Shown: positions 3,614 to 57,969, counted from the stretch's first letter. The stretch is 64,000 bases of DNA from Chloroflexota bacterium (GCA_016865865.1 VGOC01000003.1:24938-88937); one strand, 5' to 3'. Numbers and translations: made by a program. The notes: generated by a model from the sequence alone, not told the origin.

Positions 3614-3714
3614 CGAGTAGAGGATCCGGGACGGCATAGATGGGGGTGCGTATGCATCACGCACCTATATATATGCCGCCCCGCCCCCTCGTTCATGAGT
3701 TTTTCAGTGAACTC
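3614..3714. repeat. Family A palindromic repeat, decayed copy lacking the left outer arm
   Basis: CGAGTAGAGGATCCGGGACGGCATAGATGGGGGTGCG...GCACCTATATATATGCCGCCCCGCCCCCTCGTTCATGAGTTTTTCAGTGAACTC aligns with the copies at 17473, 33176 and 41163. Confidence 0.8.
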
Positions 3715-3756
3715 AATGAAGCATTTTCAGTATCATCTCAATAATTGAAGGAGGGC

Positions 3757-3795
3757 GGGGGGTGTGCGGGCGGCGAAGCCGTCCGCACACCCCCC
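3757..3795 (-). terminator. GC-rich hairpin 14 nt downstream of the URO-D-like stop; possible terminator or stabiliser
   Basis: GGGGGGTGTGCGG...CCGCACACCCCCC forms a 13-bp stem. No clean U-tract follows, so terminator function is uncertain. Confidence 0.35.
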
Positions 3796-3808
3796 ATCTT
3801 CCCCCAAG

Positions 3809-4846
3809 TTATTGAGAAGATACCATTTTCAGCAAAGCAGCGACATTCTCCATAGAAATGTCTGTCATCATCCGGTGTGAAGGAGCAACGATCAGTCCGG
3901 TTTTATTGGGCGCAAGAGTTGCGATACACTTTTCGGTCGCCTCTCTGACCTCGAGGGGGGTTCCATGAGGCAGCACGGTCTGTGTAGAAATCCCCCCGTA
4001 GTAGGCCAGGCGATCCCCGAAGGCGTTCTTCAACCAGGCGTGATCCAACACCTCGGGCTGGACTGGATTGAGAGCGGTCAAACCGATTTCGACCAGGTCT
4101 GGCAGAATCCGAGCGATCTGTCCATCGGAGTGCATCATGACCGGCAGGCCAGCCTCGAGGAAGGGTTGGAATAACCGCTTCAGGCGCGGCTTGATCATCG
4201 TCTGCCACATCGCAGGGGAAAAAAGCAGGTTCGCCTGCGCGCCGTAGTCATCGCCAAAATAGCCGCCGTCTACGCCTAGCCCGATAAAGCGTTCGATCAG
4301 AATCAACTGGATTTCTGTCACCCGCTCCAGGAGTTCTTCGACCCAAATCGGATCGAGGGCCATCTCCAGCAGAAGGGTGTCGAATCCGCGCAACGACCAG
4401 GCTCTCTCGAACAGGGCCCAACCGAAGTTCGGAACGATGAAATGCTGGCCGCCATCGGCTGCGATCTTCGCTGCGGCCTCATCCATCAATTGGGGCTCAT
4501 GCGGATCAGGCCAGGGGAAGGCATCCAGATCTTTCGACTCCGCCAGGGGATTGTAGGCTGCGTAGTAACCCTCCTCCTCCACATCGAAACCGACGCCCCA
4601 CCAATCGTATTTCCATTTGCCATCGGCGCTAACCCTGGCATCGTAGGAAAGATCGACGCGCAGCAGATGATTGCCAAGGAATTCGGGCAAATCATCCAAG
4701 GCAACATCGAAACGGGCAGCCATCTTCTGCCCCATGGCGTGGGTGTAATTGATCTGTGTGGGCAGATGATCCACTGGCTGGTGGGCAAGTGTTCGTTGCA
4801 GGCGTTCTTTCGGTGTCATTGGCGATCGGAGTTCATGTATGCGCAA
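3809..4846 (-). CDS. Uroporphyrinogen decarboxylase (URO-D) family protein, MtaA/CmuA-like methyltransferase fold
   Basis: 345 aa with N-terminus MTPKERLQRTLAHQPVDHLPTQINY. Length is typical of the URO-D family. The start could be M1 or M10. Confidence 0.65.
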   Translation of the reverse strand: MRIHELRSPMTPKERLQRTLAHQPVDHLPTQINYTHAMGQKMAARFDVALDDLPEFLGNHLLRVDLSYDARVSADGKWKYDWWGVGFDVEEEGYYAAYNPLAESKDLDAFPWPDPHEPQLMDEAAAKIAADGGQHFIVPNFGWALFERAWSLRGFDTLLLEMALDPIWVEELLERVTEIQLILIERFIGLGVDGGYFGDDYGAQANLLFSPAMWQTMIKPRLKRLFQPFLEAGLPVMMHSDGQIARILPDLVEIGLTALNPVQPEVLDHAWLKNAFGDRLAYYGGISTQTVLPHGTPLEVREATEKCIATLAPNKTGLIVAPSHRMMTDISMENVAALLKMVSSQ

Positions 4847-10625: not shown

Positions 10626-11503
10626 ACCCGCATCGCCGTTCTCCCCTGGTCATCGTCTCTACCGTGCTGGTGTATTTCTTCCTGTATGCGCCGGTGGTGG
10701 TTTTATTTCTGTTCGCCTTCAATTCCTCGAAGACCAACGTGCTCTTCGAGGGATTCATCACCCAGGTCGGCCCGACGGAAATCGTCTCCGGGAACGTCAT
10801 TCGGAGTCCCTGCGGCGCGTTCCACTGGTTCTGCGAGCTGGCCAGGAATGTCGAAGTGCGCAACGCCGCCCGAAATACGCTGACCATCGCCTTTGTCTCG
10901 ACGATCACTTCGACCATCATCGGCACGCTGGCGGCGATAGCCTTGCAGCGTTACAGCTTCAGGCTGAAGACCTTTTCGGAGGTTTCGCTGTATATCCCCA
11001 TCGTCATCCCGGAGATTGTGATGGGCATCGGCATTCTGGTCTTGTTCAGTCAGTTGTTTACCCTATTGAACAACACCCTCAGCCTGAGCGGCGACAGCCA
11101 GCTTACCCTGGGATTGGGAACCGTCATCGTTTCGCACATCGCCTTCAGCATCCCCTTTGTGACGCTGGTGGTGCGAGCGCGCCTGCACGGTTTCGACAAG
11201 GCGATCGAGGAGGCCTCGATGGATTTGGGCGCTAACGAAATCATCACTTTCTGGCGTGTGACGCTGCCCTCGATTATGCCGGGGGTGCTCTCCGGGGCGC
11301 TGCTAGCTTTCACTCTCTCACTGGATGATTTCGTGATCACTTTCTTCACCACCGGGCCTGGCGCCTCCACGCTGCCGATCTATGTTTATGGGCTGCTGCG
11401 CCGCATCGTCACCCCCCAGGTCAACGCCCTCTCGGCGGTGTGGATTTCGATTGTGCTGGTGGTCGTCTTCTTCACGCAGCGCCTGCAAAGCCGCCAAATG
11501 TAG
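10622..11503 (+). CDS. potC: Spermidine/putrescine ABC transporter permease
   Basis: ATGA overlap with potB. EAA loop [23 protein letters not shown], 293 aa. Confidence 0.85.
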
Positions 11504-11580
11504 GACAGATTGCCAATCTGTCCTACTCCCAGCGCTTGCAAAGCCGCCAGGCGTAGGACAGGTTGGCAACCTGTTCTACA
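11477..11580. repeat. Tandem ~52-bp duplication of the potC 3' end, each unit carrying a hairpin (Family E)
   Basis: CAGCGCCTGCAAAGCCGCCAAATGTAGGACAGATTGCCAATCTGTCCTAC followed by CAGCGCTTGCAAAGCCGCCAGGCGTAGGACAGGTTGGCAACCTGTTCTAC. Hairpins at 11500-11526 and 11553-11579. Confidence 0.85.
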
Positions 11581-11641
11581 AAAGCCCATATTGCTGCATA
11601 ATGCAGTCACTATTGGTCAAGGAATGCAAGTAGAGTGTAAA

Positions 11642-12010
11642 ATGTCTAATGTTACCATACGGGCGCGCATCAGCCCTGAACTCAAGCGAGAAGCCGAGGC
11701 CGTTTTTGAGGTCATCGGTATGACCACCGCGGGAGCCATTCGTGTCTTTTTGAAACAGGCTGGCAACAGCGGTGGGCTTCCCTTTCCGCCGGTTGCCAGG
11801 AAGCCCAACGCCGAGACTCTAGCAGCGATGATGGAGTTGGAAGATGGCGGTGGGCAAACGTTCCAAACCACGGATGAATTGTTTGCCGATTTGAACGCCT
11901 TCGTCGAAACGCGAATGAACGCGGACAAACGGAAATATCCATGTTTTCCGCGTTCGTCCGCATCCTATGCAAGAAGACCTTTCAACCCATATTTTTACAG
12001 GAGGAAGTAA
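11642..12010 (+). CDS. RelB/DinJ family antitoxin (ribbon-helix-helix), orphan, with a repeat-derived C-terminal extension
   Basis: MSNVTIRARISPELKREAEAVFEVIGMTTAGAIRVFLKQAGNSGGLPF...PNAETLAAMMELEDG...DELFADLN parallels E. coli DinJ (VRARIDEDLK...LPF...PN...DADDLFDKLGI). ATG at aa 45 of ORF 11510..12010. The stop overlaps the potD ATG (TAATG). Confidence 0.75.
   Translation: MSNVTIRARISPELKREAEAVFEVIGMTTAGAIRVFLKQAGNSGGLPFPPVARKPNAETLAAMMELEDGGGQTFQTTDELFADLNAFVETRMNADKRKYPCFPRSSASYARRPFNPYFYRRK
11913..11963. repeat. Family C-related GCGGA-rich palindrome inside the dinJ-like 3' extension
   Basis: GAACGCGGACAAACGG...CCGCGTTCGTCCGC; GAACGCGGA pairs with TCCGCGTTC. Confidence 0.6.
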
Positions 12011-13158
12011 TGAAAAACTCAACCTTTTGGAAATTGCTGGCAGCCATGATGGTATTCAGCCTGCTGTTGGCGGCCTGCGGAGGCAAGGCACCTGCCGCGG
12101 GCGAGGCTGAAGAATTCGTCACCGGTTCGGGATTCGTGTGTCCGGAACCGCAACCGCGCCTCGAGGTGACCTCTCAGGAGTTCAATCTCTTCGTGTGGAC
12201 GGAGTACATCCCCGTCGAGTGGAAGGAATGTTTCGAGAAGGTTTACGGCATCAAAGTGAACCACGATGAGTATTCTAGCAACGAGGAGATGTACGCCAAA
12301 CTCTCCGCCGGCGCCACGACCTACGATCTGATTCTACCCACCGACTACATTGTCTCGTTGATGGTCGGCCAGGGGATGCTCCAACCGTGGGATCATGCCA
12401 AACTGCCGATGCTGGCGAATATCAACCCCGGCTACATGGATCTGCCCTTCGATCCCGGTAATAAGTACACCATCCCCTACATGGCCGGCACGGATGCCAT
12501 GGTCTACAATGCGGAGCGCGTCGCAACCCCGCCGACCTCCTGGGCCGATCTGTGGAATCCCGATTATGCTGGTCGCTTGGTGTTGCTCGATGACCCCCGC
12601 GTGGTGATCGGCTTCACGTTGCTGACCCTGGGCTACGATCTCAACACCAAAGACCCCGCTCAATTGGAAGAGGCCAAAGCGAAACTGTTGGAGCTGATCC
12701 CCAATGTCAAGCTCTTCGATAGCGACAGCCCCAAGACGGCCCTGATCGCCGGAGACGTGGATTTGGGCAATGTCTGGAACGGCGAGGCCTTCACTGCCCA
12801 GCAGGAAGATCCCAATTTCGAGTATGTCTTCCCGAGCGAAGGCACCATCCTGTGGCAGGATAACTGGGCCATCCCGGCCAGCGCCCCGCACCTAGACGCC
12901 GTCTATGCATGGGTGAACTATATCGAGCAGGGTGAAATGTTCTGGATGATGCTGCGTGACTTCCCCTACACCGTGCCCAACGCTGCTGCCCTGGAATACG
13001 CCAAAGCCAACCAGACCGAGTTATACGATGCCTATGTCAACTCGCCGATCACCAACACGCCCGCCGATGTGCTGGCAAACGGCTTCTTCATGGAAGATGT
13101 CGGCGAGGCCACCCCGCTCTACGACCAGATTTGGACCGAGGTCAAGGGCGAGGAGTAA
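12010..13158 (+). CDS. potD: Spermidine/putrescine ABC transporter substrate-binding lipoprotein
   Basis: ORF 11941..13158 trimmed to MKNSTFWKLLAAMMVFSLLLAACGG (lipobox LLAAC) with an AGGAGGA RBS. PotD/PotF-like motifs follow (LFVWTEYIP, YDLILPTDY). Confidence 0.85.
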   Translation: MKNSTFWKLLAAMMVFSLLLAACGGKAPAAGEAEEFVTGSGFVCPEPQPRLEVTSQEFNLFVWTEYIPVEWKECFEKVYGIKVNHDEYSSNEEMYAKLSAGATTYDLILPTDYIVSLMVGQGMLQPWDHAKLPMLANINPGYMDLPFDPGNKYTIPYMAGTDAMVYNAERVATPPTSWADLWNPDYAGRLVLLDDPRVVIGFTLLTLGYDLNTKDPAQLEEAKAKLLELIPNVKLFDSDSPKTALIAGDVDLGNVWNGEAFTAQQEDPNFEYVFPSEGTILWQDNWAIPASAPHLDAVYAWVNYIEQGEMFWMMLRDFPYTVPNAAALEYAKANQTELYDAYVNSPITNTPADVLANGFFMEDVGEATPLYDQIWTEVKGEE

Positions 13159-17456: not shown

Positions 17457-17472
17457 TTTCTCTGCTCATCAT

Positions 17473-17593
17473 GAGTTCACTGAAAAAACTTCTGAACGAT
17501 GGGGCGGGGCGGCATATATGGGGGTGCGTGCGCAGCACGCACCCCCATATATGCCGCCCCGCATCCTCTACTCGTAGTTTGTTCAATGGACTC
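17473..17593. repeat. Family A palindromic repeat, full copy
   Basis: GAGTTCACTGAAAAAACT...GGGGCGGGGCGGCATATATGGGGGTGCGTGCGCAGCACGCACCCCCATATATGCCGCCCCG... fills the whole gap between the GH3 stop (17596) and the SIS start (17456). Confidence 0.9.
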
Positions 17594-17595
17594 CA

Positions 17596-19518
17596 TCATT
17601 CTTCGAGGAGTCCGAAGCCGAAGGGGAAGAGCGCTTCGCCAGATTGGGCGTTGTGGATGTTCAGCGGCAGTTGATCGTTGGTCCACGGCCAGGTGTAGGG
17701 CAACCTGCCATTGAAGGGATAATCGCCGAAGAGCACATCGGCCACGCCAGCGCCCTCACTGCCTGGCAGCCAGGCGGCTACCAGGGCGTCCATCATGGGC
17801 AGCTGGTCGCTGAGAACCAGCGGCCTGCCGGAAAGCAGGATGACGACCAATTTTTGGCAGCGTTCGCGGGCGCGGGCGATCAGGTCGCTGTCGGCCTGGG
17901 CGAGGGTCAGGTCAGCCTGGTCGCCGACGCCCTCGGCATACGGTTGCTCGCTGATCACCACGATGCCGATATCGGCGATGGCTGGCTGTCCGCTGGCATC
18001 GAAGACTTGATCGAAACGGCCAAAGCGGTTGTATTCCACCTGGGTACCCGGCGAGATGGCAGCCTGTATTCCTTCCAGGATGGTCGTGCCAGGGGTGATC
18101 ATTCCGGATTTGCCCTGCCATTCGATCGTCCAGCCGCCAGCTTGCAGGCCAATATTCTCGGCGCCCTCGCCGGCGACGAAGATCAGCGGGGTATCTTTTG
18201 GGACCGGCAGGGTCCGATGTTCGTTTTTGAGCAGCACCAGCGACTGGCGCACGGCCTGACGCGCCAATGACCGGTGATCTTGCGAACCGACGGCTTCTAC
18301 CAGCGCCGGGTCGCTGAATGGCTGCTCGAAAAGCCCCAGAGCAAACTTGGCGCGCAGAATGCGTTCAACAGCATCGTCAATGCGTTCGATGGAAACACTG
18401 CCTTCGTTCACAGCGCGAGTAAGCGAATCGATGAAGGTTTTGTAATCATATGGCGTCATCACCATGTCTATCCCGGCGTTGATCGCCGCGACCACCGCGG
18501 CGTCGTAATCATCCGATATCTGGTCAATGGCTTGCCAGTCGGAGACGATGAAACCCTCGAAGCCTAATTCGCCCTTGAGCACCTCGTTGAGCAGGTAGTG
18601 ATGGGCGTGTAGTTTATCTCCATTCCAACTGTTGAATGAGGCCATGATGCTCAACGCGCCGGCTTCGACAGCAGCCTGGTAGGGCGGCAGGAAGAGCGCC
18701 CGCAGTTCCGCCTCAGTCAGGCGCGTGTCGCCCTGGTCGAGCAAGAAAGGTTGTATATTGATCGTCTTCGATGAGCCGAACGCCGTGCCGCCATCACCGA
18801 GGTAATGTTTGGGTGTAGCCAGAACATAGATCGGGCCTCCCGACCAGTTTTCGGGCGGGGTCTGCAACCCCTGGAGATATGGGACCGCCAGGCGCGTGAC
18901 CAGTGTGGTGTCTTCGCTATACCCTTCGTAGGTGCGCCCCCAGCGAATATCCTGTGGGATGGAGACCACCGGAGCGAAGTTCCAGTGGATTCCAGTGGCT
19001 CGCATTTCTACCGCGGTGGCCTGGCCGATGGCGAACATCAAATCAGGGTCATCCACCGCGCCCAGGCCGATATTATGCGGAAAGACGGTTGCCCCTTCGA
19101 GGTTAGCGTGCCCATGGACGGCATCAACGCCGTAGAGAATAGGAATCCCCAGGCGGGTTTCCAGGGCCGCCTGTTGGAATGAAGCAACCATCTCGGCCCA
19201 GACGGCGACCGTGTTCTTGGGAGGCGACCCGCCTCCGCCGCTGAGCACCGAGCCGATGAAGTACTTGGCTACCGCCTTGGGGGTGACGCTGTTCTTCTCG
19301 ACTTGAGTCATCTGGCCGATTTTTTCCGCCAGGGTCATGCGGGCGAGCAGATCAGCGATGCGGGCTTCGCTGGGTTGGGCGGGGTCTTTGTAAATTGGAG
19401 GGGACGTAGTGGGTTCAGGCATGGTTACCTCGATTAGGGTTGGCGATGGAGTGACACAACCTGCAAGAAGGATTCCTGTTAGAAACAGGTACAGGAGTTG
19501 GGATATCAAGCGGGGCAT
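17596..19518 (-). CDS. Glycoside hydrolase family 3 exo-beta-glycosidase, lipoprotein
   Basis: Lipobox LLAGC. BglX/ExoI-type motifs KHYLGDGGT and GFIVSDW. 640 aa with N- and C-terminal GH3 domains. Confidence 0.85.
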   Translation of the reverse strand: MPRLISQLLYLFLTGILLAGCVTPSPTLIEVTMPEPTTSPPIYKDPAQPSEARIADLLARMTLAEKIGQMTQVEKNSVTPKAVAKYFIGSVLSGGGGSPPKNTVAVWAEMVASFQQAALETRLGIPILYGVDAVHGHANLEGATVFPHNIGLGAVDDPDLMFAIGQATAVEMRATGIHWNFAPVVSIPQDIRWGRTYEGYSEDTTLVTRLAVPYLQGLQTPPENWSGGPIYVLATPKHYLGDGGTAFGSSKTINIQPFLLDQGDTRLTEAELRALFLPPYQAAVEAGALSIMASFNSWNGDKLHAHHYLLNEVLKGELGFEGFIVSDWQAIDQISDDYDAAVVAAINAGIDMVMTPYDYKTFIDSLTRAVNEGSVSIERIDDAVERILRAKFALGLFEQPFSDPALVEAVGSQDHRSLARQAVRQSLVLLKNEHRTLPVPKDTPLIFVAGEGAENIGLQAGGWTIEWQGKSGMITPGTTILEGIQAAISPGTQVEYNRFGRFDQVFDASGQPAIADIGIVVISEQPYAEGVGDQADLTLAQADSDLIARARERCQKLVVILLSGRPLVLSDQLPMMDALVAAWLPGSEGAGVADVLFGDYPFNGRLPYTWPWTNDQLPLNIHNAQSGEALFPFGFGLLEE

Positions 19519-30775: not shown

Positions 30776-33163
30776 ATGCTCAGTAGACTCCGCCGCAGCC
30801 TGATTCCAAAAACGAAGAGCCTCTGGTTGATCATCTCTGCCATTATCATCCTGGCTATATTATTCCCAATTGTGCAGACCGTTGTCCTGATAAGAGACCA
30901 GGAGGCGAATACCCCCCAGACGCCTGAAGAACACTATGAAGCTGGCCTGAAGTATCTGGATGACGAAGAATATAGTTACGCCTATTACTCTCGGTTCGCT
31001 CATTTTCAGGCGAGATTTTGAAATATGGGCTGAAAATAAGGCAAAATGCTTTCTTCATTACAAATTTGACCTTTCCAGGCCAGAGATTTCTTTCAGTAAT
31101 GCCACTGGTGTTGCTTTCCTCCAGAGCGCGATGAGGTAATACCGCCATATATGGGCATGGGCTTGAGTTTCGTGCCATATATAGGGGTATCGGAATCTTT
31201 ATAACCGCTCACAAAATGAGCGAACGGAGAGTATTATGAGTTCAATCAGGCAATCAAAGGAAATCCAGATTATCTCGAGGCATACTTCGAGCTTGGTAAG
31301 ATCTATTTGATGGCAGGGGAGCCGAGCGCTGCCAGCGCTGCTTTTTCTTTTATCGTTCAACGAGATGCTGAACACAGCGAGGCCTGGTATTATCGCGCTC
31401 TATCCTACGTCGCCATCGCAGACCTGATTACGCAGGCCCAAACGGAATCTGAGCCAGGCGCCGAAATCGCCACGATCATCGAGCCTCCTCCTTTGTTCGA
31501 TCTTACCGATATCCTGACTGTAAACATCCATGAAGAAGTACTTGATTTGGAAGAGGGGGGTTCGGAGGAAGAATTACCGGCATTGACTGGGGAGCAAGTG
31601 GATGTGAGCCAGCGAGTGGATGATCCGATATCCCAGGCGATCGATGATCTGACCCAGGCCATCGAAGTCCGCCCCGATTACGAAGAAGCCATACTCGGAC
31701 GCGCCTATCTGCTCGTTGATACTCGTAACTATTACCGGGCAATAGACGATCTCGATCGCCTGATCGAAATGGATCCGGAGAAGGTCATCGCGCTCACCTT
31801 GCGCGCCCAGGCCAGGTATGCTCTGAAGAAATACGCCGACGCGACGAAGGACCTCGACAGACTTCTGGCGCTTGGGGAAGAAAGCTTGGAGATATATTTC
31901 TACCGTGGGAGTTGTTTCTTTCATCTGGGCGAATTCGAAAAAGCTGTTGACGCCTGGACACATGCCATTGCGCTGGAGCCGAATATTACGGATATCATCT
32001 TGAACAGGGCTTATTCGTATCATATGCTCGAAGATTATGAAAACGCCCTGGCTGATTATCAGGCTGTGTTGGCCGTTGAACCCAACTCGCCTTCTATTTA
32101 CAAGGATATGGGGGATATCCATATACAGTTAGAGGAGTTCGAGCATGCTGTAGCTGATTACACCCAGGCGATCATATTGGATCCTCAGAATATCGAATTT
32201 CTCTACAATCGCGGAATGATCTATCTCGAGTTGGAAGATTACGAAGAAGCGATAGCAGATTTACAGACTGTCCTCGAGATTGACCCGGACACCCCGGGTA
32301 TTTATAACAGGTTGGGAGACGCCTATTATCTTGCTGGCGAATATCGCCAGGCGGTGTACCGCTATTTGCTTGCAATCGAACAAGATCCTAGCGATATGAT
32401 CGCCTACTATAATATCGGCAGAGCGCATGTTAGTTTAGAAAATTTCGAAACCGCCAAGGGCTATTTCGATCAGGCTATCGAGCTGAACCCCGAATTTTCC
32501 GAGGCCCTGGATGGCAGTGCAGAGATGGCGCTTCGTCTGGGCGACTACCAGACCGCGGTAGATAATTATTCGACTCTCTTGGAATTAGAACCCGATTATG
32601 GCATGGCTTATTACAATCGGGGGTTGGCCTATTATCAACTGGACGAGTTCGAGAAAGCCATTGCCGATCAATCCCGCGTCATCGAAAACGATCCGGAATT
32701 CCTGGATGCCTACTATCAGCGAGGCCTGGCTTACTTCCAACAAGACCAATTTGAGCCCGCCATCGGGGATTGGGCCTATGTGATCGAGAAATATCCAGAG
32801 TATGCCCAGGCATACTACAGCACAGGATTAGCCTATTATTTCCAGGAAGATTATCAGACCGCGATTGACTACTTCGGCCAGACCATCGAAGTTGATCCTG
32901 ATTATGGCTATGCCTACTACTTCCGCGGCAATGTGCATGCCGCTCTTCAGGATTACGATCCCGCCATCGAGGATTATACGATGGCGATCAGCCTGGATAC
33001 AGAGTTGGGGCAATCCTATTACAACCGAGGAGTGTCCTATTTCCAGAGGGGCTATCAGAGCAAAGCGCTCGAGGATTTCAAGATGGTCCTGGAAGTCAGC
33101 GAGGATGCTAAACTTCTCGAAAGTGCAGAAGAAATATTACGATCCTTTGGCATTATGCCGTAA
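30776..33163 (+). pseudogene. Membrane-anchored multi-TPR protein split by a 246-bp MITE insertion
   Basis: The N-terminal piece (MLSRLRRS..., TM anchor, first half-TPR) stops at 31021 inside the insert. The frame resumes at 31234 (YEFNQAIKGNPDYLEAYFELGKIYLMAGEPS...) and continues as about 17 TPR units to 33163. Both pieces share the same frame modulo 3. Confidence 0.8.
30986..31233. mobile_element. Non-autonomous MITE with 19-bp terminal inverted repeats and a TA target-site duplication
   Basis: TA-CTCTCGGTTCGCTCATTTT...AAAATGAGCGAACGGAGAG-TA, with one TIR mismatch. No ORF inside. It carries an internal CATATATGG-type hairpin (ATACCGCCATATATGGGCA...TGCCATATATAGGGGTAT). Confidence 0.85.
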
Positions 33164-33175
33164 TCTGATCCCAAG

Positions 33176-33275
33176 GTCAGTGGATTCGGGGCGGGATATA
33201 TGGGAGTGTGTGCTCAGCACGCACCCCCATATATCCCGCCCCGCCCCCTCTTTCTTGAGTTTTTTCAGTGAACAC
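33176..33275. repeat. Family A repeat (core plus right arm)
   Basis: GGATTCGGGGCGGGATATATGGGAGTGTGTGCTCAGCACGCACCCCCATATATCCCGCCCCGCCCCCTC...GAGTTTTTTCAGTGAACAC. Confidence 0.85.
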
Positions 33276-33313
33276 AACAATGATATGGGTGCGTTTCATT
33301 CCAGTTGAAGGTT

Positions 33314-33367
33314 CCCCGAAAAAAGGGTGCAGGGGGTGCGGAGCACCCCCTGCACCCTTTTTTCGGG
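33314..33367. repeat. Family B core-only hairpin
   Basis: CCCCGAAAAAAGGGTGCAGGGGGTGCGGAGCACCCCCTGCACCCTTTTTTCGGG, without the GTAACTGCTCAGCC arms. Confidence 0.8.
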
Positions 33368-33398
33368 ACTCTTTCATCTCGTTTGAAACACGCCCCAA

Positions 33399-33944: not shown

Positions 33945-36611
33945 ATGCCTGCATCTCGTTGGAATTCTGACTTGATGGAATTGCTTTCGTGGCTCGGCGC
34001 GGAGGACTTGAAAATAGATGATTTTCTCCTGCACCCAATCGTGACTCGCGTTGGTGGAGAGGAAGATAGTCCTAAAGGGGAGATCGAAGTCCTGCAAGAG
34101 GGGGATCAAATTCCCAGCATGCTGCCGATCTTGCCGCTGCGCGGTTTGGTGGTTTACCCCGAGACAGCGGTGCCATTGACCATTGGTCAGCCTCGTTCTA
34201 TTCACCTGATTGACGATGTCGTTTCCGAAGAAAGCCGGCTGATCGGCCTGGTGGCCTCTCGCAAACCAGAGTTGGAATCCCCTGATCCCGAAAACCTATT
34301 CGAGGTAGGCACCGTCGCCATTGTGCATCGTATGTTGCGCGCCCCCGATGGCACGATCCGCCTCTTGGTGCAGGGGATTGCGCGTTTCAGACTCATCGAA
34401 TACGTTCAAATTGATCCCTACCTCAAAGCCAGGGTGGAATTGACCCCTGAGATCGAAGAGGAAGGTCTGGAAGTAGAGGCCATGGCTCGCAACGCCCGCG
34501 ACCAGTTCGAGCGCATCGCCAGTATGATCACCTCGCTGCCGCGCGAGCTGGTCGAATCGGTCTTGCTGTTGGATGATCCTCTGCAAACCGTCTATACCAT
34601 TGCTAACTTCCAGCGGATCGAACTCGAGGATGCTCAGGCGCTCCTGGAGTTGGATTCGGTCTCCCAAAAATTACAAAAACTGATCTCGATTTTAGCCCGC
34701 GAAGTCGAAGTCTTGGAACTTGGACAAAAGATACAGAAAGAAGCGCGTTCGGAGATCGAAAAAGTTCAACGTGAGTATTACTTGCGTGAACAGCTCAAGG
34801 CCATCCAGCGCGAACTTGGGGAGGGGGATGAGCAGGTCATCGAGGTGGATGAGTTTCGCGCCAAGATCGAAGCAGCCCACATGACCGAGGAAGCCGATAA
34901 GCAGGCCCGCCGGGAGGTGGATCGCATGTCGCGATTGCCCACCGCGGCGGCGGAATATGGGGTCATCCGCACCTATCTGGATTGGTTGGTCTCTCTGCCC
35001 TGGTCGGTTTCGACTCAAGACAATCTGGACATTGCCCATGCCCGTACTGTGCTGGATGAAGATCATTATGGGCTTGAAGATATCAAAGAGCGCATACTGG
35101 AATTCCTGGCTGTGCGCAAATTACGGCAGGAGCGCGTAGAAGAATTCACCGCCGAGGACAACAAGTACGATGATCGAATTCGCCGCTTACGCGAGGGTGT
35201 GATCCTGTGTTTTGCAGGACCTCCGGGTGTGGGCAAAACTTCCCTCGGGCGTTCCATCGCCCGCTCCCTGGGGCGTGAGTTCATCCGCATCTCTTTGGGC
35301 GGCGTGCGCGACGAGGCCGAAATTCGCGGTCATCGCCGCACGTATATTGGCGCATTGCCGGGGCGCATCCTGCAGGCCTTGAGGCGGGTAGAAACACACA
35401 ACCCGGTCTTCATGCTCGATGAGATAGATAAACTCTCCCAGGGCTTCCAGGGCGATCCGGCCTCAGCCCTTTTGGAAGTTCTGGACCCGGAGCAAAATGT
35501 GGAGTTTCGCGATCATTACCTGGAAGTGGCTTTCGATCTCTCGGAGGTGATGTTCATCACCACAGCCAATCGCCTGGATACCATCCCCCAGCCGTTGCTC
35601 GACCGCATGGAGACCATCCGGCTCTCCGGATACACGGAAGGCGAGAAGAAACATATCGCCAAGGGATATCTGATCCCGCGCCAGCTACGCGAGAACAGCC
35701 TGCGGGAAAGCGAGGTCCGCTTCACGGATGAGAGTCTGGACGAGATCATCCGCTATTACACCCGTGAGGCTGGCGTCCGCAATCTGGAGCGCGAGATTGG
35801 GGCGGTGTGTCGCAAGGTGGTCACGCGCATCGCCGAGGGCAAGGGGAATGGCGTCGTCGAGATCAACCCTGAGCGGATCCACGAGTACCTGGGGAGGCCA
35901 AAATTCCGCGATTTGGAAGAGATCGCCGAACGAACTTCCCTGCCCGGCGTAGCAACTGGATTGGCCTGGACCCCTACGGGCGGTGACGTGTTATTCATCG
36001 AAGCGACCCGCATGCCGGGCGGAAAGGGCTTCCAACTCACCGGGTCGTTGGGCGATGTGATGAAGGAATCTGCCAAGGCGGCGCTTTCGTTCGTGAGATC
36101 GCAGGCCAAGAAATTAGGCCTGGAGGAGAACTTCTATTCGGAGGCGGATTTCCATTTGCACATCCCGGCTGGGGCGCAGCCAAAGGATGGCCCTTCTGCC
36201 GGCATCACCATGGCTACCGCGCTGGTATCGCTGATTTCCGGGCGGCCGGTTCGTCCTGATGTGGGCATGACGGGAGAGATCACCCTCCGGGGTAAGGTGA
36301 TGCCCGTTGGCGGCGTCAAAGAAAAGGTTTTGGCTGCTCACCGGGCAGGACTCAAAAAAGTCTTACTGCCCAAGCGCAATGAAGATGATTTGGAAGACCT
36401 GCCCGAGGAAGTCCGCCAGAGGATACAATTCATCTTTCTGGATACGGTTGACGATGCGATCGAGGTTGCTTTGGAGCCTCTGCCAAAACCTAAGAAGAAA
36501 AGGCAAACCCAAAAGAATCCTGCTCCCCAAAAAGGTAAAAGAGCAGTAGATTTAGTATCAGTGGATGTAACTACTCAGCCAAACGGAGAAATTCCCGAAA
36601 AAAGGGTGTGA
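33945..36611 (+). CDS. lon: ATP-dependent Lon protease (LonA)
   Basis: LON N-domain [15 protein letters not shown], Walker [10 protein letters not shown], protease motif [16 protein letters not shown]. The last 14 codons and the stop lie inside repeat B1. Confidence 0.95.
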
Positions 36612-36678
36612 GCAGGGGGCTACGCCCCCTGCTCACACCCTTTTTTCGGGTAAATCCGTTCGATGGCTGAGCAGTTAC
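36567..36678. repeat. Family B palindromic repeat, full copy
   Basis: GTAACTACTCAGCCAAACGGAGAAATTCCCGAAAAAAGGGTGTGAGCAGGGGGCTACGCCCCCTGCTCACACCCTTTTTTCGGGTAAATCCGTTCGATGGCTGAGCAGTTAC. Confidence 0.9.
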
Positions 36679-41162: not shown

Positions 41163-41292
41163 GAGTCCACTGAGTCCACTGCAAAAACTACGAGTAGAGG
41201 ATTCGGGGCGGCATATATGGGGGTGCGTGCGCAGCACGCACCCCCATATATGCCGCCCCGCCCCCTCGTTCAGGAGTTTTTTCAGTGAACTC
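41163..41292. repeat. Family A palindromic repeat, full copy with a duplicated left arm (GAGTCCACT x2)
   Basis: GAGTCCACTGAGTCCACTGCAAAAACTACGAGTAGAGGATTCGGGGCGGCATATATGGGGGTGCGTGCGCAGCACGCACCCCCATATATGCCGCCCCGCCCCCTCGTTCAGGAGTTTTTTCAGTGAACTC. Confidence 0.9.
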
Positions 41293-41371
41293 ACATATGT
41301 CACATTTCAACGAATTTCGGGGTTCTTATAGGCGAAAATGGGAGGGCCGAGGGGGGGGTACAGCATTGATC

Positions 41372-44661: not shown

Positions 44662-44880
44662 GCCGCTCCTCCCTCAGAGGCGCAGTGTTGAGAAAGCAAT
44701 CCTTTTCTTCCGCAAAGTTTTGCATGTTCTAACGAGTATATCAGGTGCTTGATGGCGATAATCTAGAACACGCTTTGGTAATAACCAGTTGCAAAAATTA
44801 TGCCGGTAATCTCTCGGCTATTGCCGAGTTAACCGCATATGGGATTGTGACGCTCTTATGTGCGATTAGTTTCTTGGATT

Positions 44881-44992
44881 GTAACTATTCAGCCAAACGG
44901 AGAAATTCCCGAAAAAAGGGTGTGCGCAGGGGGCTACGCCCCCTGCGCACACCCTTTTTTCGGGTAAATCCGTTCGATGGCTGAGCAGTTAC
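44881..44992. repeat. Family B palindromic repeat, full copy
   Basis: Nearly identical to 36567-36678 (core GTGTGCGCAGGGGGCTACGCCCCCTGCGCACAC). Confidence 0.9.
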
Positions 44993-45218
44993 CTTGGATT
45001 TTTTGTAAACCTAACCATGTAGAAGTGTCTTGCCACTTCCCGGTAGTCGATGTGAATTTATATTTGCGCTGCCTCGTGAAGGGGACAATTCGTTTTTGCA
45101 TCTCTCGAAAGTTCCGAGATGCTTTTCGTAACCGGCTCTTTTGTTCTTTTGTAAGAGGAGAGATTGAGTTGCTCATTATTCTAATTGCGCACTGGGGCTA
45201 AAAATGAATGTTCTTTGC

Positions 45219-55824: not shown

Positions 55825-57776
55825 GCCGGGATCAGCAATATTCTCACGAGATCGAGCAATTGCTGGGATTTTCATGGGGCATAATTACCATTGGGGTTAT
55901 GATTTTGCTGGGGACGATGTGGTATTATGCCAGGTTTACACCGGTCAATGTTGGGGGGGTGTTTTATGTGGTTACCGCGACGTTTGTTTCGATTTTTATT
56001 GGCGCTATCGTCGTTTTGTTCGATCAGGAACATTGGTTAACGAGAACAGCAGCGTTTTTATATCGTTCCCCTAGGACGAACGCTGTTCTTATTCTTGTAC
56101 TGGTTGTTTTGATTGGGGGATTATATGTTTCGAGAGAATTTTTTCTTGCACAAAGGTACCCGTTTTTCGAGTTGGAATCGTTTGATTTTGGATTAAGCTG
56201 GGTGCTATCTGGTTTTTTTCTTGGGGTAGGTGGAAACTCCCTTTTTCGAGTCACAACGAAACTGAAACAGAGTATTGTCGGTCGGCATATTCACTACCTG
56301 GCCTACCTGGATAATCATGTTGTCGCCATCGGGGCGCTCATTGGACTGGTGTTGTTTTTTTATCGAAACAGCTATGAAGGGGCTTTGCTTAAGCTGGATG
56401 ATTTGTACTTTATTTCTTATGTGCGTTCATCCAGCCCCTGGGCGGGCTTCATAAACCCGCCAGATGCTTACGCATCCTTTTACCGCCCCCTTCACTTTCT
56501 GACAATCTGGTTACATTATCATCTGGTAGGCCTGGACTATGCAAAATACCAGCTTGTTTTGATTGTTGGGCATCTGGTTGTTCTAACGCTGCTTTATTTC
56601 TTTCTATATTCGATTAACCACAATCGAATCATCTCTTTCGTGCTAACCCTGGTTTTCAGCGTGCATATTTATGTCAGCTTGTTAGTGATCTTCGTTACGA
56701 CAGTAGTTTGGTGGTTCGGGGTGATTGCCGGAGCAGTGAATTTCTATATCAGTAAACCAAAATTGAAATTGCTCCCGCATTTACTATTGGGTTTCTTGTT
56801 GATGATGTCTTTGTTGATGGCTGAGTCCGGCTTTACCCTGGTGTTCGCTGTTTGTTTCTTTGCCCTGTACGCATTTTTTATCAAGGAAATCAACCTTCGA
56901 AATGTTCTCTCTCTCGTGATGGTAAATGTAGGGGTTGTAGCAATTTACTTTTTTCTCCGCTGGAAGGCGGTGGGATTCTTGCCGGGGGATTTGAGCGCCT
57001 CGTCGGGCTATTTTGGGGATTTCTACGAAGACCCTCAACAACTCGGGATGAAATTTTATCTCTACACCCTCACAGCGAATTTCATGGCAACATTTATCCC
57101 GATATTTACTCAAGGGGGAGAGATCATCAAGAATTCTGTGCTCCTTATTCTCGCGGGAGCAATATTATTTAGCCTATATGTTATTTTGCTTCGAAAGTTT
57201 TCGGCCAATTTCGTTGTGCAAATTCTTTTATTTATCCTGTTTTATGTGCTCTTGATAAAATCGAGGATTCTCATTCGACGGTTTCTCGGCTATGGATATC
57301 AATACGATTTGAGTTTTGCACTTCATACGATTTTAGGTTTCAGTCTTGTGCTGTTGTTCTCTCGATGGAAAAAAGTCTCGAAGCAGCATAAGCTCATCAT
57401 GTTTTATGCAATTGGGCTGATAGTGGGGGCCAGTATCGTCTCTTTCGCATATTTCCGCTGGAGAACGCACTATCTAAGCCTTATGGGTTGGGTAATTATC
57501 ATTGCGGTTGGACTACAATACCTTCACACATTGAAATCCGGTCGAGCAGTTCTCGTGAGCTTGCTCATCCTGGCAAGTATTTTGATCTGGGAGCAGGCCG
57601 CTCTTCTCGACGCCCGATTTCCTGAAATTACAATTCGACAATATCAGCACTGTCTCTGTCATCCATCCGTGGATCAGGATGTGTTCGATGAAGTTGTTGA
57701 GTTCTATGGTATAGACGTTGAGTCATTGCTTTCTGAGTGCGAAGAGGGAGATTGGGGTATATATCATGATTGCTAA
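55821..57776 (+). CDS. GT-C fold polytopic glycosyltransferase-like membrane protein (PMT_2/DUF1736-like) with an extra N-terminal TM module
   Basis: 651 aa, more than 15 predicted TM segments. The loop LKLDDLYFISY...FYRPLHFLTIWLHYHLVGLDYAKYQLVLIVGHL resembles the DD...YRPL...G..P..(Y/F)H signature of the ArnT/PMT/TMTC-type first periplasmic loop. ATGA overlap with rfbB. Lower GC. Confidence 0.6.
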   Translation: MSRDQQYSHEIEQLLGFSWGIITIGVMILLGTMWYYARFTPVNVGGVFYVVTATFVSIFIGAIVVLFDQEHWLTRTAAFLYRSPRTNAVLILVLVVLIGGLYVSREFFLAQRYPFFELESFDFGLSWVLSGFFLGVGGNSLFRVTTKLKQSIVGRHIHYLAYLDNHVVAIGALIGLVLFFYRNSYEGALLKLDDLYFISYVRSSSPWAGFINPPDAYASFYRPLHFLTIWLHYHLVGLDYAKYQLVLIVGHLVVLTLLYFFLYSINHNRIISFVLTLVFSVHIYVSLLVIFVTTVVWWFGVIAGAVNFYISKPKLKLLPHLLLGFLLMMSLLMAESGFTLVFAVCFFALYAFFIKEINLRNVLSLVMVNVGVVAIYFFLRWKAVGFLPGDLSASSGYFGDFYEDPQQLGMKFYLYTLTANFMATFIPIFTQGGEIIKNSVLLILAGAILFSLYVILLRKFSANFVVQILLFILFYVLLIKSRILIRRFLGYGYQYDLSFALHTILGFSLVLLFSRWKKVSKQHKLIMFYAIGLIVGASIVSFAYFRWRTHYLSLMGWVIIIAVGLQYLHTLKSGRAVLVSLLILASILIWEQAALLDARFPEITIRQYQHCLCHPSVDQDVFDEVVEFYGIDVESLLSECEEGDWGIYHDC

Positions 57777-57783
57777 ATTGATT

Positions 57784-57897
57784 GTAACTGCTCAGTCATC
57801 GAACGGATTAGCCCGAAAAAAGGGTGTGCGTGGGGGTGCTGCGCACCCCCACGCACACCCTTTTTTCGGGAATTTCTCCGTTTGGCTGAGCAGTTAC
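57784..57897. repeat. Family B palindromic repeat, full copy, inverted orientation
   Basis: GTAACTGCTCAGTCATCGAACGGATTAGCCCGAAAAAAGGGTGTGCGTGGGGGTGCTGCGCACCCCCACGCACACCCTTTTTTCGGGAATTTCTCCGTTTGGCTGAGCAGTTAC. Confidence 0.9.
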
Positions 57898-57969
57898 AAT
57901 TGATTTTCCTGAAAATAAGAATTGCATTGTATCAATCGCTCGTTTGTTTTTCTGTTCGGGAGGTCTAAG

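Follow-up and report, generated by a model that had tools for sequence, protein, structure and literature searches.

IS1634-family insertion sequences are 1500–2000 bp long, carry a terminal C and generate 'five to six bp AT-rich' target duplications, and their DNA ends have been described as 'only poorly conserved' (PMC2266710). Short derivatives of the family are known from Methanosarcina, where the MITE partnered with ISMba11 measures 247 bp, has 20-bp IRs and a 6-bp DR and is present in 23 copies, and the MITE partnered with ISMac10 measures 249 bp and has 18-bp IRs (PMC3852290, Table 4). In Microcystis aeruginosa PCC 7806, IS1634-family insertions alter gene expression (PMC11448079). IS1634-derived MITEs and IS1634 gene disruption in freshwater bacteria are therefore both already described. 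Here we analysed a 64,000-nucleotide stretch of a freshwater Chloroflexota bacterium (GCA_016865865.1 VGOC01000003.1:24938-88937; hereafter, the window), in which a 244-bp IS1634-family MITE has, with high confidence, inserted in codon 71 of a membrane-anchored TPR gene. The initial annotation had already recognized a MITE splitting this gene, had assigned it to the IS630/Tc1-mariner type on account of a TA duplication, and had suggested looking for sibling copies, an autonomous IS630-like parent and an empty site.

Re-reading and recomputing the sequence gave an element of 244 bp (Table 1) with a GC content of 44%, against 54% for the window. Its two 19-bp terminal inverted repeats (TIRs) match at 18 of 19 positions and are the only matches to the TIR in the 64-kb window when three mismatches are allowed (0.07 expected). 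The terminal 30–50 bp are 83–100% identical to those of full-length ISs described below, and the core gave no BLAST match beyond these ends in a comparison with 67 TIR-bearing loci and the window. Overlapping open reading frames extend into the flanks. The element thus combines the features of a MITE: a length below approximately 500 bp, no transposase gene, TIRs, a target-site duplication and TIRs in common with autonomous ISs. A TIR search revealed no full-length IS1634 element within the 64-kb window. As single-stranded DNA the element would fold by pairing of the TIRs and by the internal hairpin (z = −3.9), nothing unusual in a MITE. We also considered whether the element is a structured RNA or intron of a known kind, and dropped this idea because Rfam returned no match, either for the whole window at the gathering threshold or for the element at E ≤ 1.

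Table 1. Features of the interrupted TPR gene and the inserted element, in window coordinates.
Feature	Position	Strand	Description
5′ gene part	30776-30987	+	codons 1–70 plus 2 nt; charged N-terminus, signal anchor of ~24 hydrophobic residues, first helix of TPR 1
Left target-site duplication TATTA	30983-30987		5-bp perfect direct repeat; family norm 5–6 bp, AT-rich
MITE	30988-31231		resembles full-length IS copies in the terminal 30–50 bp only
Left TIR CTCTCGGTTCGCTCATTTT	30988-31006	+	identical to the ends of 1.79–1.80 kb IS1634-family elements
In-frame TGA in the MITE	31019-31021	+	terminates the N-terminal stub after 71 native residues and the MITE-encoded SRFAHFQARF
Internal palindrome, MITE core	31139-31190		16-nt arms, 88% complementary
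Outward promoter-like site	31208-31237	+	CTCACA, 18 nt, TATTAT; 9/12; right TIR plus duplication; consensus match only
Right TIR	31213-31231	-	reverse complement CTCTCCGTTCGCTCATTTT
Right target-site duplication TATTA	31232-31236		5-bp perfect direct repeat; family norm 5–6 bp, AT-rich
3′ gene part	31237-33163	+	641 codons plus stop, fully open; without native start codon and membrane anchor

The interrupted gene starts with ATG at 30776, and its product matches Pfam TPR_1 (290 bits) and TPR_2 (261 bits). The repeat array consists of 14 gapless 34-residue repeats at the C-terminal end and approximately three further repeats at the N-terminal side. The N-terminus is positively charged and is followed by a hydrophobic stretch, so the earlier description of an N-terminal anchor cut off from about 17 TPR units was borne out; the host protein is predicted to be membrane-anchored and is probably extracytoplasmic. 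Translation from the native start runs into the MITE and stops at the TGA 32 nt inside it, which leaves an 81-aa stub comprising the anchor and half of TPR 1, annotated by NCBI as hypothetical protein MBM3143584.1. Candidate restarts of the 3′ part are TTG 31307 and ATG 31310, giving 617–618 aa without a membrane anchor, and the JGI gene caller indeed restarted this part at ATG 31310 (617 aa). The exact 617-aa C-terminal TPR fragment (31310-33163) was not present in the protein collection searched, a negative to be read with caution for close relatives, given that the window's own proteins were absent among the hits of the homologue search.

The flanks of the element read ...GCC TATTA / element / TATTA TGAG..., and the TA at each end of the MITE is the final two bases of this TATTA repeat. 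The adjoining TA that the initial annotation reported is thus present, whereas the duplication as a whole is the 5-bp TATTA. Deleting 246 nt (30988-31233), as expected for a TA duplication, does yield a single open frame of 713 codons. Deleting 249 nt (the element and one TATTA) likewise restores the frame, and the product, ...YSYAYYEFNQ..., is one Tyr shorter than that of the 246-nt deletion. Because 246 and 249 are both multiples of three, frame restoration is uninformative on whether 2 or 5 bp were duplicated.

The host protein itself provides a ruler for this choice. We built a PSSM and an HMM profile from its own 14 gapless 34-residue repeats and scored both reconstructions. The 249-nt excision product scored +12.1 bits with the gapless PSSM and 7.1 bits with the HMM, its alignment running continuously from profile position 8 to 34, whereas the 246-nt product scored −10.8 and −0.6 bits, respectively, and its alignment ended at the junction. 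Numbered as a canonical TPR, the 249-nt product carries G8, Y11, Y17, A20, F24, A27 and P32. The 246-nt product instead places Gly at 7 and Leu at 11, whereas the protein's repeats and the canonical TPR have Gly 8 and Tyr 11; this offset of one position in the first helix means that the 246-nt product contains one surplus residue in TPR 1. The 34-residue register that the 246-nt deletion had been said to restore is therefore restored by the 249-nt deletion, and the register speaks for a duplication of 5 bp in the window copy too. Extending the TIR to 21 bp so that it takes in the TA, with a 3-bp TAT duplication, was a further option, which we rejected: the corresponding 251-nt excision breaks the frame, and the bases outside CTCTC are unconserved in the family.

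The two models predict different ancestral sequences. A TA duplication would have the pre-insertion junction GCCTATTATTATGAG and a TATTA duplication GCCTATTATGAG, the empty allele expected under the 5-bp duplication being ...TACGCCTATTATGAGTTCAA.... The pattern TTACGCCTATTA N{0,3} TGAGTTCAATCAGG, which covers either excision product, had 0 matches in the JGI metagenome contigs, and a search for orthologues with the reconstructed 712-aa protein returned generic TPR proteins only (≤36% identity), none close enough to be usable for the junction. With neither an empty site nor a close orthologue at hand, we infer the pre-insertion sequence rather than observe it.

To place the element in a family, we scanned 185,579 species, each represented by one genome, for the TIR 19-mer and obtained 67 loci, approximately 9 of which would be expected by chance by our own estimate. 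They fall into Chloroflexota (32), Cyanobacteriota (12), Pseudomonadota (11), Armatimonadota (8) and a few other phyla. When left TIRs were paired with right ones and the unselected end was permitted as many as 4 mismatches, 29 bounded elements resulted, the window's included; the loci were chosen by one perfect TIR, so that only the other end, with its 0–4 mismatches, is unbiased. Seven of the bounded elements (L010, L011, L028, L029, L037, L043 and L046) are 1788–1802 bp long, and each contains one intact ORF of 571–581 aa. All of these full-length copies come from genomes other than the window's. The protein of L046, the one autonomous partner scanned against family models, matched NCBIfam NF033559 'IS1634 family transposase' with 299 bits (cutoff 100, E = 6e-89); this IS1634 model was the only one matched in NCBIfam, and Pfam DUF4277 and DDE_Tnp_1 were matched too.

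The flanks of the 29 elements tell the same story as the TPR register. Perfect flanking repeats of 6 bp were found in 13 elements and of 5 bp in 5 (18/29), with 85% A+T, and a control with mismatched left and right flanks gave repeats of at least 5 bp in 0.7% of pairs. No perfect flanking repeat was detected in 10 of the 29, and L043 had TA only; these exceptions include five of the seven full-length copies. A TA on both sides occurs in just 2 of the 29 elements. In length, in their CTCTC... ends, in their 5–6 bp AT-rich duplications and, for L046, in the match to NF033559, the autonomous partners show the traits of IS1634, the family to which we assign them by sequence.

An IS630/Tc1-mariner-type MITE, with TA as the duplicated target and a precise excision of 246 nt, would account for the TA at both ends of the window copy and for the in-frame 246-nt deletion. 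IS630 transposases are approximately 340 aa long, and IS630/Tc1-mariner elements duplicate TA at every copy. The partners found here have ORFs of 571–581 aa, one of them matching the IS1634 model, and the repeats of their relatives, for example TTACTG and TTCATT, include ones that do not end in TA. Given also that TA is here the end of a longer repeat and that the 246-nt product fits TPR 1 poorly, this assignment is very improbable. Autonomous partners with the same TIRs exist in other genomes, and they are of the IS1634 rather than the IS630 type.

A relative lies on a Tolypothrix plasmid, where RefSeq annotates an IS1634 family transposase and a sequence matching 16 of the 19 TIR positions lies 21 bp from the gene end. 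This transposase (L074; Tolypothrix sp. PCC 7910 plasmid NZ_CP050442.1, 47655-51626) is shorter, at 502 aa. A single related TIR was found at this locus, and approximately 660 bp past the other end of the transposase there is a reverse transcriptase gene of a group II intron; the copy may be truncated. A search of a plasmid collection with the full IS gave only short matches of 70%, in Nostoc and Tolypothrix, all lying inside the transposase gene.

The seven full-length copies encode transposases that are 45–88% identical, and their 19-bp TIR is nearly invariant. This end conservation is much above the description of the family, in part through the bias of selecting loci on one perfect TIR. 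The remaining 22 short TIR-bounded elements, 132 to 370 bp long, fall into 13 clusters with unrelated cores, which suggests that a single widespread IS1634 clade has given rise to MITEs repeatedly and independently. It is conceivable, though we hold it only tentatively, that this clade, present in at least five phyla, is an unusually prolific source of MITEs across phyla, with a near-invariant TIR and transposases at 45–50% identity.

Two further sets of TIR loci were observed in the scan. One long-read MAG, 'uncultured proteobacterium MFD05684.bin.1.338' (L025, L027, L039, L049 with two copies, and L064), contains at least six copies of a 132–133 bp MITE that has the same TIRs and another core. 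The duplications of this MITE are 6 bp each (TTAGTA, TTATCA, TAATAA, TTTTAA, TTCTTA and TTAATA), the two copies on L049 share one orientation and are separated by 1.6 kb, and the element clusters with 155–156 bp elements of two betaproteobacterial MAGs (L004 and L065). In a Chthonomonas calidirosea MAG (Armatimonadota), eight contigs (L002, L003, L020, L031, L044, L047, L056 and L060) have the TIR approximately 90–145 bp away from the end of the retrieved segment, a picture suggestive of a high-copy element on which the assembly broke up.

Within the JGI metagenome collection, a sibling copy of the window's MITE was found at another locus: the last 98 bp of contig L073 are 100% identical to 31231-31134, and the flanks are unrelated. 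This contig, which ends inside the MITE, belongs to the same series of lake metagenomes. The search used a degenerate pattern for either MITE end and recovered L073, as this 98-bp end, as its only sibling locus, so that at least two MITE copies were seen in all; the window's own contigs were not returned by it, and its coverage of the population is patchy. On L073, an integron integrase gene occupies 11026-12003 on the minus strand (TIGR02249, 471 bits, cutoff 265), and the sibling MITE (12258-12355) starts 255 bp upstream of the start of that gene, where attI or the first cassette of this Chloroflexota integron would be expected.

Independent assemblies reproduce the insertion. Two JGI contigs from different samples (L068 and L069) are 99.96–99.99% identical to the window and have the same right junction; they begin inside the MITE, at 31063 and 31167. 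Breaks of contigs at repeats are usual behaviour in short-read assembly. The stub with its MITE-encoded tail is on record in 2 contigs with an 81-aa call and 5 contigs with a 125-aa call, in addition to the NCBI Chloroflexota MAG. The insertion is real and widespread in the sampled population, and it looks fixed in the populations sampled.

These data also bear on whether there was an insertion at all. The segment could be native sequence of a two-gene arrangement, or the locus an assembly chimera, and the failure to find either an empty site in the JGI contigs or an uninterrupted orthologue would be in keeping with this. However, the same junctions recur across the NCBI MAG and several JGI assemblies of separate samples, the ends of the segment are the TIRs of a mobile-element clade, and an identical end stands at an unrelated locus. 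Excision moreover rebuilds the TPR in exact register, and the GC content of the element is 10 points under that of the window. We consider a locus without insertion scarcely credible. Together, the TIRs, the duplication, the autonomous ISs with the same TIRs, the sibling copy, the in-frame stop and the clean in-silico excision uphold the initial view of a MITE that splits the TPR gene.

The window also contains palindromic repeats. Intergenic copies of a family of approximately 100–125 bp, unrelated to the IS1634 MITE, lie at 3614-3718, 17472-17596, 33179-33277 and 41168-41293 (81–93% identical, with matches to one another on both strands); one of them is 16 bp past the TPR stop codon, and the Logan contigs L070 and L072 start inside it, at 33247. 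A second family of approximately 115–130 bp occupies 36552-36678, 44866-45002 and 57775-57907 (77–95% identical) and has a copy on L073 (74-196, 85%); this shared repeat suggests that L073 belongs to the window's genome or to a close relative of it. Isolated palindromes are located at 3730-3823 and 33287-33395.

What the insertion has done to the gene can be judged from the reading frames. The TPR gene has most likely been inactivated, and the residual product would at best be a cytoplasmic fragment of 617–618 aa started from the internal TTG or ATG. The insertion could alternatively be tolerated or even exploited, the outward promoter at the right end of the element driving an anchor-less 617-aa TPR protein from a re-wired gene. 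In favour of such a use, the promoter-like match points to the 3′ fragment, the 1.9-kb downstream frame is intact, and the insertion is apparently fixed across several samples. The match is weak, however, and lies in an AT-rich stretch, with 5 matches against 1.5 expected for the region; a recent insertion predicts an intact frame equally well; and a protein built for the outside of the membrane is unlikely to be functional in the cytoplasm. We therefore regard re-wiring as unlikely, and inactivation as the reading to be preferred.

These results allow us to propose how the MITE reached its present position. A full-length IS1634-family element would have supplied its DDE transposase in trans, and this transposase would recognize the 19-bp TIRs of the MITE. 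The MITE would then have been joined to cuts staggered by 5 nt in the AT-rich TATTA run of codons 69–71, and gap repair would have duplicated TATTA. Both mobilization in trans by an IS1634-family transposase and a parent element in the same genome are presumed here. The insertion looks recent, because the duplication is perfect, the TIRs match at nearly every position, the sibling is identical over its 98 bp and the downstream frame has stayed open over 1.9 kb.

For annotation, it follows that the 81-aa 'hypothetical protein' and the anchor-less TPR ORF are the halves of one gene, which ought to be marked as a pseudogene and given a MITE feature. More generally, a TA beside the TIRs is insufficient for an IS630/mariner assignment, and the repeat register of a host protein can serve as an internal ruler that distinguishes a 2-bp from a 5-bp duplication with no need of an empty site. 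With this locus, Chloroflexota join the hosts of the few IS1634-derived MITEs on record, and attention is drawn to an IS1634 clade that is widespread and whose ends are strongly conserved.

The closest of the known systems are the Methanosarcina MITEs, which are of near-equal size (the window element having 244 bp, 19-bp IRs and a 5-bp DR), are non-coding and, as in the window element, have only their ends in common with an IS1634-family partner; they differ in their archaeal rather than Chloroflexota host, in the sequence of the TIR and in an unrelated core. The IS1634 family itself, represented by IS1634 of Mycoplasma mycoides and by IS1549 (PMC2266710), resembles the autonomous partners in size, initial C, a single long ORF and AT-rich duplications, whereas the window element is without a transposase gene, and the family consensus has Y at position 7 (PMC2266710) where the TIR clade of this MITE has G. 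MITEs of the IS630/Tc1-mariner type are likewise small, with TIRs and an AT-rich target, and share the TA beside both ends of the window copy; they are set apart by the duplication of the 5–6 bp type and by the IS1634-type partner transposase, which place the window element outside that group. The Microcystis case is similar in that a freshwater bacterium shows recent IS1634 activity, with the genes hit in or near silenced or altered, and unlike it in that full-length 1746-bp elements were followed there with transcript evidence, whereas here a MITE, known from sequence alone, splits the gene.
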